Below, one piece after another: positions 7,534 to 63,531 of a stretch of 64,000 bases of DNA. Source of the stretch: Eledone cirrhosa (taxonomy: Eukaryota); contig OZ024755.1 of NCBI GenBank assembly GCA_964016885.1, forward strand, positions 24,552,001 to 24,616,000, written 5' to 3'. Numbering within the stretch: the first letter of the stretch is position 1; each line of letters starts with the position of its first letter. Both the position numbers and the translations under genes were made by a program. The notes beneath the pieces were generated by a model. It was not told the DNA's origin and did no database searches. It saw nothing but the letters and a program-made list of their open reading frames with translations.

Positions 7534-7653
7534 AATAATTATTTCTAATTTTGGCACAAGGCCAGCAATTATCACAGTACATTACTGGTACTTTATTTTA
7601 TCGACCCCGTAAGGATGAAAGGCAAAGTTAACCTCGGCGGGATTTGAACTCAG
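7534..7653 (-). mobile_element. Young tRNA-derived SINE (main family), 5'-truncated
   Basis: Reverse complement of GTTCAAATCCCGCCGAGGTTAACTTTGCCTTTCATCCTTACGGGGTCGATAAAATAAAGTACCAG. Confidence 0.85.
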
Positions 7654-7775
7654 AGGTAATAATGTTGGTATGTAATATTGCTAATGCAATGCAAGTTATG
7701 GACAATGGGATGTTTCCCGTGTCAAAGTCCATCCCCTATATATATGTTGTATGTCCGAGTACATATATATATATT

Positions 7776-8213: not shown

Positions 8214-8377
8214 TATTTAAGGTGGAAGGTAATATCCGTAGTGGTAGAGCACTCAGTCCATTGGACGAGTTAGGTAGAAGTGGTTACATAACAGTTAGGG
8301 TTAGGGTTAGGGAGCTGATGATCCGCTAAGGTGAAACAATTGTTCTCCGTATGGTGAACCAACTGTTGTGTAACCAC

Positions 8378-12474: not shown

Positions 12475-12861
12475 GGTGGATTGGCAGTATTGGTAGAGGG
12501 TCGGACGCCATGCTTTGGCGTATAGAGTTACGGCCCTTGCCATTCTGAGTTCAAATCCCGCCAAGGTTAACTTTGCCTTTCATCCTTATGGGGTCGATAA
12601 AATAAAGTACCAGTAATGCACTGGTTAATTGCTGGCCTTGTGCCTAACGTAGAAACAATTATTACACACACACGGTGGATTGGCAGTATCGGTAGAGGGT
12701 CGGACGCCATGCTTTCCAGCATAGTTACGTCCCTTTACGATCTAAGTTCAAATCCCGCCGAGGTTGACTTTGCCTTTCATCCTTACGGGGTCGATAAAAT
12801 AAAGTAGCAGTAATGCACTGGGTAATTGTTGGCCTTGTGCCTAAAAGTAGAAACAATTATT
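12475..12861 (+). mobile_element. Head-to-tail pair of full-length main-family SINEs (12475-12663, 12674-12861)
   Basis: A box TGGCAGTATCGGTAG, B box GAGTTCAAATCC, central GCCTTTCATCCTTACGGGGTCGATAAA (resembles the Meta/MESC SINE domain, from memory), (ATT)n tail. Confidence 0.9.
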
Positions 12862-14289: not shown

Positions 14290-15100
14290 TCCCGTCGATT
14301 TCGGCGTATGAGGATCCATACAACCAATGGAAGTTTATGTCGAGTATGACATTTTAGTCCTGCCTAGGATTTACAAGCAATTCCCCTGATCGGACTGTGC
14401 AAGGATGTGGATTACTGGATAATGTTGCTGGCGATTTTACTAATGTTTTTGCACTCCCCCCCCTCTCTTGCGTCTTGTAGCAGATGGATACAACCGAATT
14501 CGAAGTTCTTGATCCCATTATAACACATAGATCTCCAATCCTTCCGTTCTAATGCCACTTGCTCAAATATCTCATAAGGTTGCTGAAAGGTTACTCTTCA
14601 GCTTGTCTTTATACCTGAACCATATATCCACTATCAAGCTGACTGTACATGAGGACTTTTGGAATTCTTTCGTCACTCATTGTGAGGACATGAGCAAACC
14701 TGCATAGTTGTGATTGCATAAGAAAGATCTTAATGCCTCCAATTTTGCACTTAGTGAAGAGGCCAACGTTAGATATTTTGTCTTCGAGTTTGTACCCACA
14801 TATTAACCAAAGACAGCCTTTATAAAAGACAACTAGTTGGTTGATGTATGACCTATTTAGAGTCCAAGATCCTGATCCATATAATAGGGTGGTCAGTACA
14901 ATAGCTTTATAAACCTGTGTCTTGGTGTCTAGTTTTATACCTCTTTCCTTCCAAAGGCGATGACGGAGCATGCCAAATACATTCGTGGCTTTCCCTATAC
15001 GGTTGGTTATCTAATCATCCAGACATGCATTTGAGTTCACCTTAATGTCAAGATAAGTGAACGATTTCACATACTTGAAATTCTTCCCATCGAGCTGAAG
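14290..15100 (-). mobile_element. RTE LINE C-terminal/3' fragment
   Basis: LWKERGIKLDTKTQVYKAIVLTTLLYGSGSWT...HVLTMSDERIPKVLMYSQL, characteristic RTE C-terminus; stops upstream. Confidence 0.85.
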
Positions 15101-18613: not shown

Positions 18614-18665
<52 letters not shown>

Positions 18666-18666
18666 T

Positions 18667-18715
18667 CTTGTCTGATGATCTTGCGAGTACACAGGTGAAA
18701 CTCCAAAGTTGCAAG
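18667..18715 (+). ncRNA. Type I hammerhead ribozyme (complete core), minimal insert in (TA)n
   Basis: CTTGT-CTGATGA-TCTTGcgagtacaCAGGT-GAA-ACTccaaAGT-T-GCAAG; all three stems pair; GUU triplet. Confidence 0.85.
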
Positions 18716-18745
18716 GGTCACTGCTTAGCCATAATAAATGAATAT

Positions 18746-22707: not shown

Positions 22708-23289
22708 AAGAATTCAAGAAGATGTTCCAGATAGTAACTCTTGAAAATTCGTCATCCAGCTCAGCTATAAGTTGGCTGGCTAAAGCATTGTTCTGTTTAA
22801 GGAACAACTTAAGCTTACATCATGTAAATCAAGAGAGCTAAACAAAAGTAACTTTTTTGGTTATATATTTCATTTATAAAAAGTGTTTCTTTCTTTAACA
22901 CCGATATTATTGTGTCTTTAGAACGTATTCCGTCTGCTTATTTTCATTTCAATTCGTTCTGTTGTCTGGTTTCCACATTGGATTCAGTAAAGTAAACAGA
23001 AAAGACAATATACTATAGACCAGATTTTAAAAAAATGGTCATAAATAAAAAGATGTGTATGTGTGCAACTTCTGAATATTGTTCGATTGACCTATGATTC
23101 GGCATACGAGTATATCGTTAATTCATAAACTGAACGGGTACAACCGACATGAGATGACTGGCGAATAGTTTGCAAAATGGAACATCCTAATATACATATT
23201 ATGTATAGGTCCATATATAATGTTTTTTATATAATATGCATATAGATTATAGGTCTATATATATATATGTTTGTATATAATCTATCTAT

Positions 23290-23592
23290 CTAGGCGGGTA
23301 AAATTCCCTAGATCCATAGACGAGTTCTCTCCAGCGGTCTCTGTCCATCATTATCGCTGCTATGTCCAGCGTCTCCAAGAGAGCTGTGTCTGTCCTTAGG
23401 GCATCAACATATGTCAACCTCGGTCTCCCTCTTCTAGTGTATCCGTGTAGGGGCTCCCACAGGAGCACTAAGCGCAGTGCCAACTCTGAATGTCGGTGAA
23501 CATGTCCAGCTAACCTCAGTCTCCTCTGTGTTATTATCGAGCTGACTTTTGGAAGGCATCCGTACAGCTCTGAGTTCTTCATCCTCAGTGTA
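23290..23592 (-). mobile_element. RTE LINE 3' fragment
   Basis: NSELYGCLPKVSSIITQRRLRLAGHVHRH...LWEPLHGYTRRGRPRLTYVDAL...DRDRWR. Confidence 0.85.
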
Positions 23593-23899
23593 TACTGATT
23601 AATATACATATATATATGTCCATATACAATATGCTTATATATGATATACATAATATATATAGGTCAATATACAATATGTTTTATATAATAACGATAGCTA
23701 GTATCTGAATATTTAAAGCTAGAATCGCATACGAGCAACTTTGATATGAAGAAACACATAAATAAACGATAAGATAAAGAGACGGAGAATAATGATATTA
23801 ACATGTTGTATTCTGCTTGTTTACTTCATCGATTAACAGGTCATTACATAAATCGATCTATTGGGAAAAGACGTTCAGAGGAAAGCAGGAAAACAATAA

Positions 23900-30060: not shown

Positions 30061-30814
30061 AAGAAATTAGAAGAAGTAGCTGGCCGAAGCCGCTGAGTTA
30101 GCGGTGGATACTCTACTTTTACTGATATACCCACTCTGCAGCATACCATATATCGAGTACTTCTTTGATTTGTTGTCTTCTTGGTCTCAGTACAGCAGAC
30201 TATCAATACAAGCGAAATTGTTTTAATCGACTCTACCCTGTACCCTGTCCTCTACAAACTTGTGAACTTAAGTTTATGCTAGAAATGTTATTTTACCGTT
30301 TATTTTTTGGACATTTTTTCCAGTGTGTTATCACAGCAAGTAATCTGGAAGATTGAACTTTATTACATCTGAAGTATTTGTCAGATCTTATTTCTCCAAG
30401 ACGTGATCAACTTGCAATATTTTACATCAACTTTTCACCGGTTCTGTGAGGTACCAGCTTTTATAATTATTTTCTTATTTTTTCGTTTAAATATTAGAAA
30501 AAGATTTTGTTTCTGATTTAAACGCCTATGTATTGAACCAAGGAACATTGCTAGAGCAAATAAATGTTGATAAGCTAAGCAAATATAAGCTTATAGACTT
30601 GAGACATATTGGAGTTTAAAGAAAATAATAATAGTCGTGTTTGAAGAGGGTAAAGTACATGGAGATAAATATGGAGACATGCTTTATATTCTTGTATTAT
30701 TATAGGGTAAAAAATATCATTGGAAAGAAAGGGAAAGGCCACTTTCAATGATGTCTGGCGACGGAGTTGGAATCAATGGGATTATATCAATGGTTGATTG
30801 ACTGACTGACAGAC

Positions 30815-31140
30815 TAATTTCACGTTATTCCAGTCCACTGTGTCCTTGAGCAAGATACTTTATTTCATGTTACTTCAGTCCAGTGTCCTTGAGCAAGATA
30901 CTTTATTTCATGTTTTTTCAGTTCACTGTGTTCTTGAGAAAGACACTTTATTTCATGTTTTTTTTTCAGTTGAGTGTGTCCTTGAGCAAGATACTTTATT
31001 ACGTGTTACTCCAGCCCACTGTGACTTTGAGCAAGACACTTTATTTCATGTTACTTCAGTCGACTAAGTCCTTGAATAAGACAATTTATTTCACGTTGCT
31101 CCAGTCTATTGTGTCCTTGAGCAAGTCTATTGTGTCCTAG
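30815..31140 (+). repeat. ~44-bp tandem array derived from a SINE core segment
   Basis: Unit TGTGTCCTTGAGCAAGATACTTTATTTCATGTTACTTCAGTCCAC. Confidence 0.8.
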
Positions 31141-31453
31141 CAGTTACATGTGATGCGCTGTTCGGTTGGATTGTATTCCTGAGTTAAGGCGATAGAATAG
31201 GGAGAGTCGAAGTCCGTTTAGATGTGTCTTTGCACGTTTAAACTTTGACTGTACCCTAAGCTAGTCGATGTTGAAACAGTTGTAATATACCATTAAATTT
31301 TGTACATATGCTGCAACACTGATTCCGACTCTACACAATCTCTCTCTCTCTATATATATATATGGGGGGGGGGGGGGGCGTGTATTGCTTGCGTTTGTTC
31401 TGGGTGTGTCTGCGTTCGGATTTCTGTGTTTGACGGTTCTACTTACTTTTTTG

Positions 31454-33908: not shown

Positions 33909-34023
33909 TATATATATATTTATATATATAAATATATATATATATTTATATATATAAATATATATATATAAAGGGAAGTAAGGCTTCTATACAAAACTGG
34001 ATATAGAGAAAAGGTGAAACTTC

Positions 34024-34097
<74 letters not shown>

Positions 34098-34099
<2 letters not shown>

Positions 34100-34637
34100 G
34101 ATAAAACTACCAAGAGTTTACGGTAGTGTCCAATCCGTATGAAGAACTCAATGTATTCCGGATATCATGGAAAGAAGAGATGTAATGAAAAACCACTTTC
34201 GGTGAGAGATAAAAGGTATACAGAGTCAAGATAAAATATTAAACAAATAATGAATAAACAATTCCTTATATTAAACAAAAAAAGTTCATTATTTAACGAT
34301 CGTTTCTAGGATATATATGTGTTAGAATTGGTATGCATATTCAACAGATCTATGTACAAAATTATACAAAATTATACAAATTATCAAGATTAAATATACA
34401 TACCAAACACATATATACGCCGTCTTCAGAAATAATCATGATTATTTCTGAAGACGGCGTATATATGTGTTTGGTATGTATATTTAATCTTGATAATTTG
34501 TATAATTTTGTATAATTTTGTACATAGATCTGTTGAATATGCATACCAATTCTAACACATATATATCCTAGAAACGATCGTTAAATAATGAACTTTTTTT
34601 GTTTAATATAAGGAATTGTTTATTCATTATTTGTTTA

Positions 34638-34646
<9 letters not shown>
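34098..34646 (-). mobile_element. (TA)n-embedded element containing a 416-bp palindrome
   Basis: Palindrome 34231-34646 centred on TCATGA (34436-34441), which gives identical ORFs on both strands; tail 34230-34098. Confidence 0.9.
34441..34589 (+). ncRNA. Type I hammerhead ribozyme with ~115-nt stem II (mirror copy on minus strand)
   Basis: ATTATTT-CTGAAGA(34448-34454)-long hairpin-GAAA(34571-34574)-CGATCGT-T-AAATAAT. Confidence 0.8.
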
Positions 34647-34682
<36 letters not shown>

Positions 34683-35054
34683 CATTTCTTGTTGACACCA
34701 ACAAATCTGTGTTGTAGATAACGTAAAGAATAGTGAATTGTTTTTGTTTTTGTTACAACACTTCAATTGTCACACACACGTGTGTGTGTGTGTGTGTGAA
34801 TATATATGCATTTCTTTCTTTTCTTACTCTCTTCTATCTTTCTATTTCTTCTACCTCTCATTCTACCTTTTGACGAATGACTAATGACCGAAACGTTAGT
34901 CACTTTTCTTAATATATCAAGTATTAAATATCATAGTTCTCCTGGGTTGTTTTTCCACCTTGACTTTTCGCATACGTACATACACACACACATGTATTTT
35001 TGCAGATATAACTTTATGAACGATCTATGTATCTATCTACTTATCTCTCTATCT

Positions 35055-36202: not shown

Positions 36203-36214
36203 GTGAGTGTAGAA

Positions 36215-36775
36215 AGATGTATATGTTTTTAAAATATCTTCGCTAACTGATCCCTGGCTCAGTCTGAAAGATATGTCTGTTTGATTATATCTTTGTCATT
36301 TGATCCTACTCTGTCTCAAATGTGTGTATGTTACTAATATATCTTCGGTAGCTGATCCTACGTTCAGTCATAAAGGTGTGTATGTTACTAATATGTCTTC
36401 ATCAGTTGATCCTACGCTCAGTCACAAAGGTGTATATGTTATTATTACGGTGAATTGGCAGTATCGGTAGAGGGTCGGACATGCTTTCCAGCGTAGTTAC
36501 GTCCCTTTACGATCTGAGTTCAAATCCCGCCGAGGTTGACTTTGCCTTTCATCCGTACAGGGTCGATAAAATAAAGTACCAGTAGTGTACTGTGTAATTG
36601 CTGGCCTTGTGCCAAAAGTAGAAACAATTATTATATCTTCATCAGCTGATCCTACGCTCAGTCTCAAAGGTGTATATGTTTAAGTATATCGTCGTTAGCT
36701 GAACCTAATCTCAATCTCAAAAATGTGTATGTACTAATATATCTTCGTTGATATATCTTACTCTTACTCAGTCTG
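36215..36775. repeat. Degenerate ~55-bp minisatellite interrupted by a main-family SINE (36449-36633)
   Basis: Unit AGGTGTGTATGTTACTAATATATCTTC..AGCTGATCCTACGCTCAGTCTCAA. Confidence 0.75.
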
Positions 36776-40837: not shown

Positions 40838-41142
40838 ATAATAATTGTTTCTACTTTTGGCACAAGGCCAGCAATTATCTCAGTACATTACTGGTACTTT
40901 ATTTTATTGACCACGTAAGGATGAAAGGTAAAGTTAACCTCGACGGGAATAATAATAATTGTTTCTACTTTTGGCACAAGGCCAGCAATTACACAGTGCA
41001 TTACTGGTACTTTATTTTACCGACCCCTTAAGGATGAAAGGCAAAGTTAACTTTGGCGGGATTTGAACTCAGAATGGAAAGGGCCGTAATTCTATGCATC
41101 AAAGCGTGGCGTCAAGCCCTCTACCGATACTGCCAATCCACC
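40838..41142 (-). mobile_element. Two tandem main-family SINEs (truncated 40838-40948, full 40951-41142)
   Basis: Family consensus match. Confidence 0.88.
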
Positions 41143-41144
41143 AA

Positions 41145-41480
41145 TGATTTCTTTATTGATCACAAAGGGTTTACATTAAGAAAATCATCATGGCAATACA
41201 GGACGAAAACATAGCGTATGTGTATGTGTTCGTGTGTGAGTTTTGCGTGTAAACAAAGTTTAACAATGTTTCAAAAAAAGATAATAAAATTAAAACAAAG
41301 AAGGTTCCTCAATAGGGAGAGGTTCAAGGGTCATCCGTGGAAAAAATTCCATAAAACCACGGATGCCCTGATCTTTGGGGTAAATGCCCGGTCCCAGTTG
41401 TACTTCTTTAATCTACAGGCTCACACTCAGAGTGGGTCCATACTCTCAGGCCATACTCGCTTCTCTCACCCACCTTTCAA
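41145..41480 (-). mobile_element. Diverged Tx1/L1-like 3' end
   Basis: ERWVREASMA-stop-VWTHSECEP-like remnant and TTTCTTTATT terminus. Confidence 0.55.
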
Positions 41481-44861: not shown

Positions 44862-45053
44862 AATAATTGTTTCTACTTTTGGCACAAGGCCAGCAATTAC
44901 CCAGTGCATTACTGGTACTTTATTTTATTGACCCCGTAAGGATGAAAGGCAAAGTAAACCTCGGCGGGATTTGAACTCAGAATGGCAAGGGCCGTAACTC
45001 TATGCGTCAAAGCATGGCGTCCGACCCTCTATCGATACTGCCAATCCACCGCC
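44862..45053 (-). mobile_element. Full-length main-family SINE with target-site duplication
   Basis: TATATATAGTAAAAATAAT present on both sides. Confidence 0.9.
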
Positions 45054-48218: not shown

Positions 48219-48641
48219 GGGCGATGGATTGGCAATATCGGTAGAGCGTCGGACAACATGCTTTATAGCAAAGGGTTACGCCCCTTTACGATCTGAGTTT
48301 AAATCCTGCGGAAGTTAGCTTTGATTTTCATCCTTATGAGGTCGATAACATAAAGTACCAGTAATGCACTGGGGTCGATTTCATCGACTTTCCCCTGCCC
48401 CAAAAGTGTTGGCCTTGTGCCTAAATCAGAAACCATTATTAATAAAGTTTGCGATAGATTGGCAGTATCGGTAGAGGGACGGACGCCATGCTTTGACGCA
48501 TAGAGTTACGGCCCTTGCTATTCTGAGTTCAAATCCCGCCGAGGTTAACTTTGCCTTTCATCCTTACGGGGTCGATAAAATAAAGTACCAGTAATGCACT
48601 GGGTAATTGCTGGCCTTGTGCCAATAGTAGAAACAATTATT
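48219..48641 (+). mobile_element. Two tandem main-family SINEs (long variant 48219-48440, short variant 48451-48641)
   Basis: Second copy flanked by duplicated ATTAATAAAGTTTGC. Confidence 0.88.
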
Positions 48642-59795: not shown

Positions 59796-60289
59796 GTAAC
59801 GGTGGTCGTGGTGATAGTTGTGGTGATGGTGGTAGTTTTGGCGGTGGTTGTGACGGTTGTGGTTGAAGTGACGGTGGTGGTGGTGGTTGTGGCGGCGGCG
59901 TTGGTGGTGGGATGACGGTGGAGGTGATGGTGGTATTGGTTGTTTGTTATTATTTTGATGGAACATTTTTTCATCTTGCATTTCTGTCATTTGGCAAGGA
60001 CATGTTAATTAATGCTACACCCATGCCTGTGCATTTGCATGCCTGACTGCAGAATGTTGCAGCTATAATGCACTGAAGCCCAAATCCCAGGACACCACTT
60101 CCGCTCTCAAGCTATGTCAGCCGTTTTACCCTTTCATTGCCGTATTTTTAATGAAAGACACTCTATAATTTGCAAATCACTTTGAAAATACTCAAGAATT
60201 TGAAGTGATTTAGTAATATGTATTCTCAGTTTTAAGCCGGTACTTGGACCATACCTTAACAAATGTTTCAACATAATTTTGACGCAACA

Positions 60290-60648
60290 ATTGGCAGTAT
60301 CGGTAGAGGGTCGGACGCCTTGCTTTGACGCATAGTGTTACGGCCCTTCCCATTCTGAGTTCAAATCCCGCCGAGGTTAATTTTACCTTTCATCCTTACG
60401 GGGTCGATAAAATAAAGTACCAGTAATGTACTGAGTAATTGCTGGCATTGTGCCAATAGTAGAAACAATTATTAGTTAAATACGGCGGTACTTTACATTC
60501 TGAGTTGAAATCCCGCCGAGGTTAGCTTTGCCTTTCATCCTTACGAGGTCGATAAAACAAAGTACCAGTAATGCACTGGGGTCGATTTGATTGACTTTAC
60601 CTTCCCCTTCAAATTGCTGGCCATGTGCTTAAAATAGAAACCATTATT
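60290..60648 (+). mobile_element. Two tandem main-family SINEs (short variant, then truncated long variant)
   Basis: ATTAGTTAAATA duplicated around the second copy. Confidence 0.85.
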
Positions 60649-63399: not shown

Positions 63400-63531
63400 A
63401 GTTAAGTCTAAGTTCAAACCCCGCCGAGGTTAACTTTGCCTTTCATTCTTACGGGGTCGATAAAATAAAGTACCAGTAATACACTGATATAATTTCTGGC
63501 CTTGTGACAAAAGTAGAAACAATTATTATTA
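63400..63531 (+). mobile_element. Main-family SINE, 5'-truncated
   Basis: Family consensus match. Confidence 0.85.

Follow-up and report, generated by a model that had tools for sequence, protein, structure and literature searches.

How did a long, spacerless palindrome with a ribozyme motif in each half arise in the genome of the octopus Eledone cirrhosa? Here, we describe the palindrome and its origin from an analysis of 64,000 nucleotides (GCA_964016885.1, contig OZ024755.1, positions 24,552,001 to 24,616,000, forward strand; hereafter the window, numbered from its first letter) and of related copies elsewhere. A first-pass annotation, made from the letters alone, had described an apparently perfect palindrome, suggestive of recent insertion, with a hammerhead in each half, a stem II hairpin of ~115 nt and a fold centre 2-3 nt upstream of stem I. 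These features are borne out: 34231-34646 is an exact 416-nt palindrome with a 0-nt spacer, its extension failing at the very next base, and each half carries a hammerhead core motif with its stems and covariation (a predicted ribozyme), a 116-nt stem II and a centre 2 nt upstream of stem I. A recent insertion is supported by the identical arms, by an identical copy on another contig (C4) and by best-matching arm copies that are 99-100% identical (40 scored out of 620 candidates in the 3.0-Gb genome). The palindrome is real and recent, and we are nearly certain that it belongs to a known kind of element with a known layout. The annotated extent covered the 416 bp and missed both a further 134 nt of the left copy and the flanking (TA)n repeats; it also did not recognise the whole as an ordinary Penelope-like footprint, or the long stem II as a trait of the family rather than of this locus.

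The full insertion measures 550 bp (34097-34646) and lies within a (TA)n repeat in which both of its outer ends are embedded (left half 34066-34096, right half 34647-34679). It consists of two head-to-head copies of a terminal repeat (pLTR), one of 340 nt including a 134-nt tail and one of 206 nt without a tail, here numbered from the first base of stem I as +1 (34441 on the + strand, 34436 on the - strand). Arm 1 runs from +206 to +1 on the - strand (34231-34436) and alone carries the tail (+207 to +340, 34097-34230, - strand), whose parental counterpart is 5' UTR and which contains a first bulged stem, ACTC...TT-GAGT (+211 to +291, 34146-34226, - strand), beginning 5 nt behind the +206 end. 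Arm 2 runs from +1 to +206 on the + strand (34441-34646). Type I hammerhead motifs occupy 34288-34436 of arm 1 (34295 and 34294 flank the predicted cut) and 34441-34589 of arm 2. Between the arms lies CATG (34437-34440), a self-complementary junction that is absent from the parent and gives each arm a G at -1 (C in the parent) and one further base. The 340-nt arm is a letter-for-letter match to a long copy with a broken ORF (L289, from 8965 onward, contig C4), the only other locus seen with the haplotype of the window arm and possibly the sister or the source of the window insertion.

Comparison with 30 loci revealed the continuation of the left copy to 34097 and the (TA)n outer ends, and a search with the tail led to parent units arranged in tandem. 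In these units an ORF encoding reverse transcriptase (RT) plus a GIY-YIG nuclease at the C-terminus is directly linked to the 340 nt of the window (loci L063, L065 and L066); it begins at +496 (ATG), and the longest version from a start codon has 823 aa (L065), the others being broken. The parent protein gave no significant match in Pfam and has 119 homologues, many carrying PF26215. Motifs of the Hydra clade, compared by eye with the published section and protein excerpts (PMC8557442), were found as RWR (a variant of RWK), SDKT, CNCRNKANC, CRLC and CNH, with CCHH absent; the protein thus shows the RWK and DKT motifs, the CxCX5C linker, the CxxC and CxH around conserved E and N, and the C-terminal EN of that clade. 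The single RT and GIY-YIG ORF adjoining the pLTR, the partial tandems, the inverted 5'-truncated copy and the tail on one side agree with EN+ Penelope-like elements, and nearly every Hydra-clade family is listed with (TA)n as its target (PMC8557442). Judged from its sequence, the element is a young, abundant Hydra-clade Penelope-like retrotransposon, the clade being assigned from motifs, target and layout. Two exact motif searches of the whole genome found 2,909 young and 3,651 older copies. The family is also present in four other organisms, with the head-to-head junction in one, and the element is covered by reads that an independent study obtained from the same species, repeat-adjacent stretches lying outside that read comparison.

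According to the sections of PMC8557442 compared, the published Hydra-clade elements (Penelope-13_HM, Hydra-1_Obim) share with this family the RT and GIY-YIG ORF, the (TA)n target, a type I hammerhead in the pLTR, partial tandems, an inverted 5'-truncated copy, a one-sided tail and a mismatched stem II base. They differ in stem II (3-7 bp, against 99-116 nt in the window family), in the tail (30-40 nt, against 134) and in length (<3 kb, a tendency that is not diagnostic, against a tandem period of 6.4-7.2 kb with a microsatellite-rich 3' UTR); the window family also has a ~90-aa insert rich in Asn, Lys and Thr, and RWR for RWK. Since the published description (PMC8557442) already combines (TA)n targets with a one-sided tail and, at the 5' end, an inverted 5'-truncated copy, the palindrome is an ordinary footprint of its class in the shortest form, one of hundreds alike. 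Non-LTR retrozymes, as described in the portion of bioRxiv 10.64898/2026.07.22.740005 compared, are likewise non-coding, carry a type I hammerhead and derive from Penelope-like pLTRs; the window insertion, in contrast, ends away from the ribozyme cut site and is a truncated coding element, and instead of a tandem array of 150-400-nt hammerhead monomers it has two inverted copies only. As separate observations, the parental 3' UTR in L063 (1161-8356, minus strand) is ~4.4 kb of mixed (TA/TG)n, which brings the unit to over double the length published for Hydra elements; the low-complexity insert of the ORF lies between thumb and linker; and at L219 (1640-1760, minus strand) the insertion sits just behind a stretch that looks like the GIY-YIG terminus of a different Penelope-like element.

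On the + strand, stem I (34441-34447) pairs with 34583-34589 over 7 bp (against 10 bp in the parent) and is followed by CTGAAGA (34448-34454), stem II (34455-34570) and GAAA (34571-34574); stem III is 2 bp with a palindromic loop (AACGATCGTT), and the predicted cut falls after GTT at 34582 (+142). Each half therefore reads CTGAAGA, 116 nt, GAAAC-GATC-GTT and the 7-bp stem I, with the CUGANGA, GAAA, NUH and stems I-III of a type I hammerhead. The base of stem II has C.A, then G.U or A-U, G-C and C.C, in place of the usual G-C closing pair, and a mismatched base is also common among the Hydra motifs in the excerpted File S2 of PMC8557442, where stem II loops are of 3-10 nt. Young subfamilies have a stem II of 115-116 nt and older ones a stem II of 99-105 nt, the gain in young copies being largely a 10-nt tandem duplication at the tip. 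In a stem alignment of 30 chosen haplotypes, 98.7% of 1,226 cells are paired, against 19-62% in slid controls. Of the 41 pairs, three show changes in both partners and 12 in a single partner. Because the aligned copies are related to one another and one of them supplied the structure, the pairing is support rather than proof. The core is invariant in these 30 copies, for which it was a selection criterion. Folding of the palindrome arm gives z = -6.85 relative to 200 shuffled sequences.

Most of the recurrent changes in stem II of young copies are sense-strand A>G or preserve pairing in another way, whereas the private T>C changes lie scattered. They support selection on the sense-strand hairpin, an effect that at the level of sequence is inseparable from editing; ADAR editing as the reading of the A>G excess was set aside, because selection for pairing (A-U to G.U) gives the same outcome. 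A motif search for short-stem relatives found none in which 4-34 nt separate the core halves; in 120 matches the separation is 62-92 nt, and these look like older-subfamily copies individually shortened by deletion. Rfam gave no match at the gathering score across the whole window, and no hammerhead family was among 38 matches at E<=10 for 34000-34800; the weak matches were AT-rich miRNA hairpin models far below their cut-offs and were rejected. The 116-nt stem II likely exceeds the Rfam models, hence the lack of a match, and the label of hammerhead accordingly rests on the core motif, the stems and the covariation. A text search likewise gave no hit for two motifs of the window hammerhead in the portion of the PMC8557442 supplement covered. 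Two other hammerhead-like motifs lie in the window at 8305-8355 and 18662-18720 (+ strand), with a short stem II and the form CTGATGA...GAAAC.

As far as the compared part of PMC4209133 goes, the minimal hammerheads of Penelope-like elements resemble this one in being type I, with a short palindromic helix III and an extra nucleotide after A9, and in having opposite-strand motifs that are often 100-700 bp apart; a helix III of 2 bp with a palindromic loop is the type that needs dimers, and its published cleavage is weak. Their helix II differs, with 6-8 bp and a conserved G10.1-C11.1, against ~30 bp of stacked helices closed by C.A in the window. By folding, the active-like structure lies 7.5-8.1 kcal/mol above the best fold in short arms and 3.1 in the parent context, and a double-hammerhead dimer reaches -97, against -86.6 for two monomers. 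The hammerhead probably cleaves poorly as a monomer and probably requires a second copy or the protein of the element. A transcript of the palindrome would hold one sense and one antisense hammerhead, so that the known tandem dimer would be impossible in cis. The annotation's expectation of ~200 bp of dsRNA competing with ribozyme folding agrees with these predictions, in which a transcript through the palindrome would form a 206-bp hairpin (-310 kcal/mol) with the hammerhead buried in the duplex.

Such a read-through RNA would suit a palindrome kept for host function, as a source of dsRNA (an ADAR or Dicer substrate) or as a ribozyme switch, and the predominance of A>G in stem II is what editing of an RNA intermediate could give. 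We consider this very unlikely, because the insertion is of very recent origin and shares its layout with hundreds of others, A>G is equally allowed by selection for pairing, and no clear host exon was found nearby among the ORFs of the window.

The outer ends show how regular that layout is. In 61 of 64 head-to-head pairs (taken from fetched loci rather than a random sample, with 15 duplicate or long loci excluded) one arm ends at +204 to +209 and the other at +339 to +340; no pair has two ends alike, and the same 61 pairs have many different centres. A bulged stem of the form RCTC...TT-GAGY occurs exactly twice in the 7,196-nt unit, each time 5-9 nt behind an outer end; the second, GCTC...TT-GAGC (+349 to +466), follows the +340 end in the parent and is missing from the window insertion. 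TTTCAC(C/G)GAAA also occurs exactly twice in the unit, at +230 and +357, one in each bulged stem, and the window copy has a one-base variant at the first. Origin as an assembly or library fold-back artefact, the refuting option named in the first-pass annotation, would account for the perfect spacerless symmetry, and the independent-read comparison skipped repeat-adjacent parts and so provides no read across the junctions of the locus. We regard it as extremely improbable, because the mirror symmetry ends at the family-wide +206, excluding the tail and the differing flanks, the layout recurs and the centres vary at other loci, and both the head-to-head junction (X6) and the +206-(TA)n end (X5) occur in contigs of other organisms.

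Each arm reads antisense from its own target end, a geometry that fits two-ended priming. Among 59 overlapping arm pairs, 45 have one or more variants in common relative to the reference, indicating the same template, and two differ at a common marker. The shared variants and the one-sided losses are also explicable by arm-to-arm conversion and by central deletion after insertion. At L012 (1385-1841), the head-to-head arms differ at two common subfamily markers, reflecting two templates or later conversion. A precedent for two-ended priming is the Poseidon element of Anolis (PAc): in the sections of PMC11167929 compared, the purified protein, predicted to be dimeric, cuts and extends both target strands and starts reverse transcription at two internal sites bounding the tail, with an AT-rich target and a pLTR hammerhead as further likenesses. 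PAc belongs to a different clade, and in those sections its starts are not tied to inverted arms and run-off at the RNA 5' end is not reported.

The inverted arm could instead have formed by self-priming (fold-back) of one nucleic acid, followed by a cut at +206. This is the published reading of head-to-head palindromes in Penelope-like elements, with an antisense template (PMC3846280, in the part compared), and it would suit arms that are nearly always of one haplotype and the self-complementary CATG at the centre of the window locus. At 69 loci, however, a complete +1 arm adjoins a tail arm stopping at +203 to +284, the two overlapping little or not at all, a configuration that self-copying of one cDNA could yield only with a later deletion. 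Fillers of up to 88 nt between arms, the two-haplotype pair at L012 and the position of both outer ends just before matching sense-strand RNA stems also stand against it, and we think self-priming quite unlikely. The inverted Penelope pLTRs of Adineta (PMC3846280, same part) share the head-to-head arrangement, a junction palindrome, a tail on one pLTR and Inr-like pLTR sequence; they are explained there by self-priming, whereas the window family fits two primings on sense RNA better. One expectation of two-ended priming failed: tail arms did not stall at the second priming site (30 junctions at +228 to +198, against 39 in a control window).

The inner end of the arms is equally sharp. The parental C at -1 is present in 2,231 of 2,909 young copies, the other 678 having G (171) or, by subtraction, A or T (507), and 2,026 of the 2,909 run on to -14. 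On contig C1, the first 100 matches include 31 head-to-head, one tail-to-tail and seven tandem neighbours, and the head-to-head gaps are 19-25 nt (6), 276 nt (1) or 2.6-11.6 kb (24), a distribution that makes +1 a discrete barrier rather than a point on a smooth truncation curve. This stop differs from the ribozyme cut site (+142) and from the edge of the parental 10-bp stem I (-3). The 69 junctions of short tail arms comprise 32 that are templated, six that extend into parent sequence and 31 with filler, a few fillers being mis-split by variants; -1 is G in 11 of the 31 junctions with filler, whereas inner filler bases are G in 18 of 194 cases (9%; Fisher p=3.8e-4). In a sample selected for G, most G at -1 were explained by the partner arm or ambiguous by eye.

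The extra G, the Inr-like context TTC-A(+1)-TTAT, an AATAAA at -14 to -9 (both shared by young and older parents) and, at L074, a poly(A) run immediately ahead of +1 suggest, indirectly and from sequence, that +1 is a capped transcription start. Transcription of Penelope in D. virilis starts within the pLTR (PMC2377424).

A host SINE marks the same bond, with junctions at +1 in 556 copies genome-wide. It ends in ...GTAGAAACA-ATTATT, exactly at +1 of mostly older copies (94 among the first 100 matches), and most junctions have element sequence on both sides. The SINE normally inserts at ATTATT and duplicates a target that begins with ATTAT (9 of 11 copies in the window, some matches being only 5 nt), and ordinary target preference fits most junctions, L219 and L156 fitting template jumping better. 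The SINE at +1 was therefore set aside as proof of template jumping, given the ATTATT preference, the duplications, the older copies and the element sequence on both sides. A single inherited SINE-element composite is unlikely, the SINE parts not tracking element divergence (rho -0.01). Loci with the SINE at +1 include L155, L156, L167, L171, L173-L175, L182 and L200-L223, sometimes in tandem and sometimes on both arms; L173/L174 and L210/L211 carry near-identical SINEs with different 5' junctions, and L216/L217 do not. At least 15 SINE copies lie in the window (among them 7542-7654, 12476-12855, 36455-36626, 40846-41159, 44868-45049, 48459-48641, 60286-60467 and 63407-63521), and in several cases one copy has inserted at another's ATTATT end, with a duplication that begins with ATTATT.

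This hotspot might also result from cutting of the DNA at +1, and two-ended priming could then have been followed by cutting, with a long head-to-head insertion or intermediate nicked in both arms at the ATT of +1 and its middle lost. Long palindromes are known to lose their centres, which counts for such a course. So does the SINE distribution: in 55 older-subfamily loci fetched without SINE selection, nine arms have the SINE at +1 and none has it at the other ATTAT sites of the element. The PAc nuclease, moreover, prefers ATT in vitro (PMC11167929, sections as above). Cutting leaves the excess of G at -1, the poly(A) run of L074 and the arrangement of Inr-like context and AATAAA unexplained, and solo +1 arms sit directly in (TA)n; we hold this version unlikely.

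The explanation we prefer, and judge fairly probable, is that the 550 bp are an abortive insertion, in which both cut strands of the (TA)n primed reverse transcription at two fixed sites and the copies ran off at the capped 5' end of the RNA. It builds on the identity of the element, the fixed outer ends (+206 and +340, one on each arm), the stop at +1, the excess of G at -1 and the conserved stem II. The GIY-YIG nuclease of the element would cut the (TA)n target, and both cut strands would prime RT on the sense RNA at two fixed internal sites, +206 and +340, presumably positioned by the two bulged RNA stems. Both cDNAs would run off at +1, the transcription start of the capped RNA, with the extra G at -1 perhaps copied from the cap, and the two cDNA ends would be joined head to head. 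In long copies, RT may cross from +1 to the RNA's 3' end and continue into the body; the AATAAA would place that 3' end just past the next +1.

In L1 twin priming, the second target strand primes an inverted cDNA, and in retroviral strong-stop synthesis reverse transcription begins close to the 5' end of the RNA, runs off and must then cross to the 3' end. The likeness to L1 and retroviruses is one of working and not of membership, there being no L1 endonuclease, tRNA primer or integrase, and here both primings would fall at fixed sites near the 5' end, so that the arms duplicate each other. By extension, Hydra-clade elements in general may move by two-ended priming with a strong-stop step and a functional stem II, an idea we offer tentatively and rate below an even chance. 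Both target ends would prime RT before the twin stems near the capped RNA 5' end, only cDNAs crossing to the 3' end through a 5-20-nt terminal overlap would become long, and stem II at the RNA 5' end could be a protein-binding or editing platform or a brake on self-cleavage.

Penelope-like elements are the closest relatives of telomerase RT. The value of the present case lies in the family and not in the locus, whose layout is published and one of hundreds. How these elements make inverted copies and rebuild terminal repeats is stated to be open (PMC2377424, and the parts of PMC3846280 and PMC8557442 compared). If true, the strong-stop scheme would jointly explain the inverted pLTRs, the one-sided tail and pLTR regeneration, and it predicts exact coordinates: RT starts at +206 and +340, an RNA start at +1 and a 3' end just past the next +1. 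Inverted insertions with a tail on one side are known; the long conserved stem II and the sharp stop at +1 appear to be new in this family. In the mainly open-access literature searched, where absence is weak evidence, we found no report of twin priming or strong-stop synthesis for Penelope-like elements, of a sharp stop at the first base of stem I with an extra G, or of a stem II of 99-116 nt kept across subfamilies. A hammerhead motif whose stem II is many times the published length, with pairing kept over thousands of copies, is invisible to Rfam, and hammerheads in animal genomes may thus be undercounted, long-stem motifs perhaps escaping current searches.

Among the ORFs of the window, no convincing exon of a host gene was found, only LINE-like fragments; regions around ~14612-15010 and 23289-23663 hold short ORF pieces resembling the C-termini of LINE reverse transcriptases, with unreliable strand labels. 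Degenerate tandem repeats of ~45 nt and ~54 nt occupy 30795-31142 and 36213-36764, respectively.
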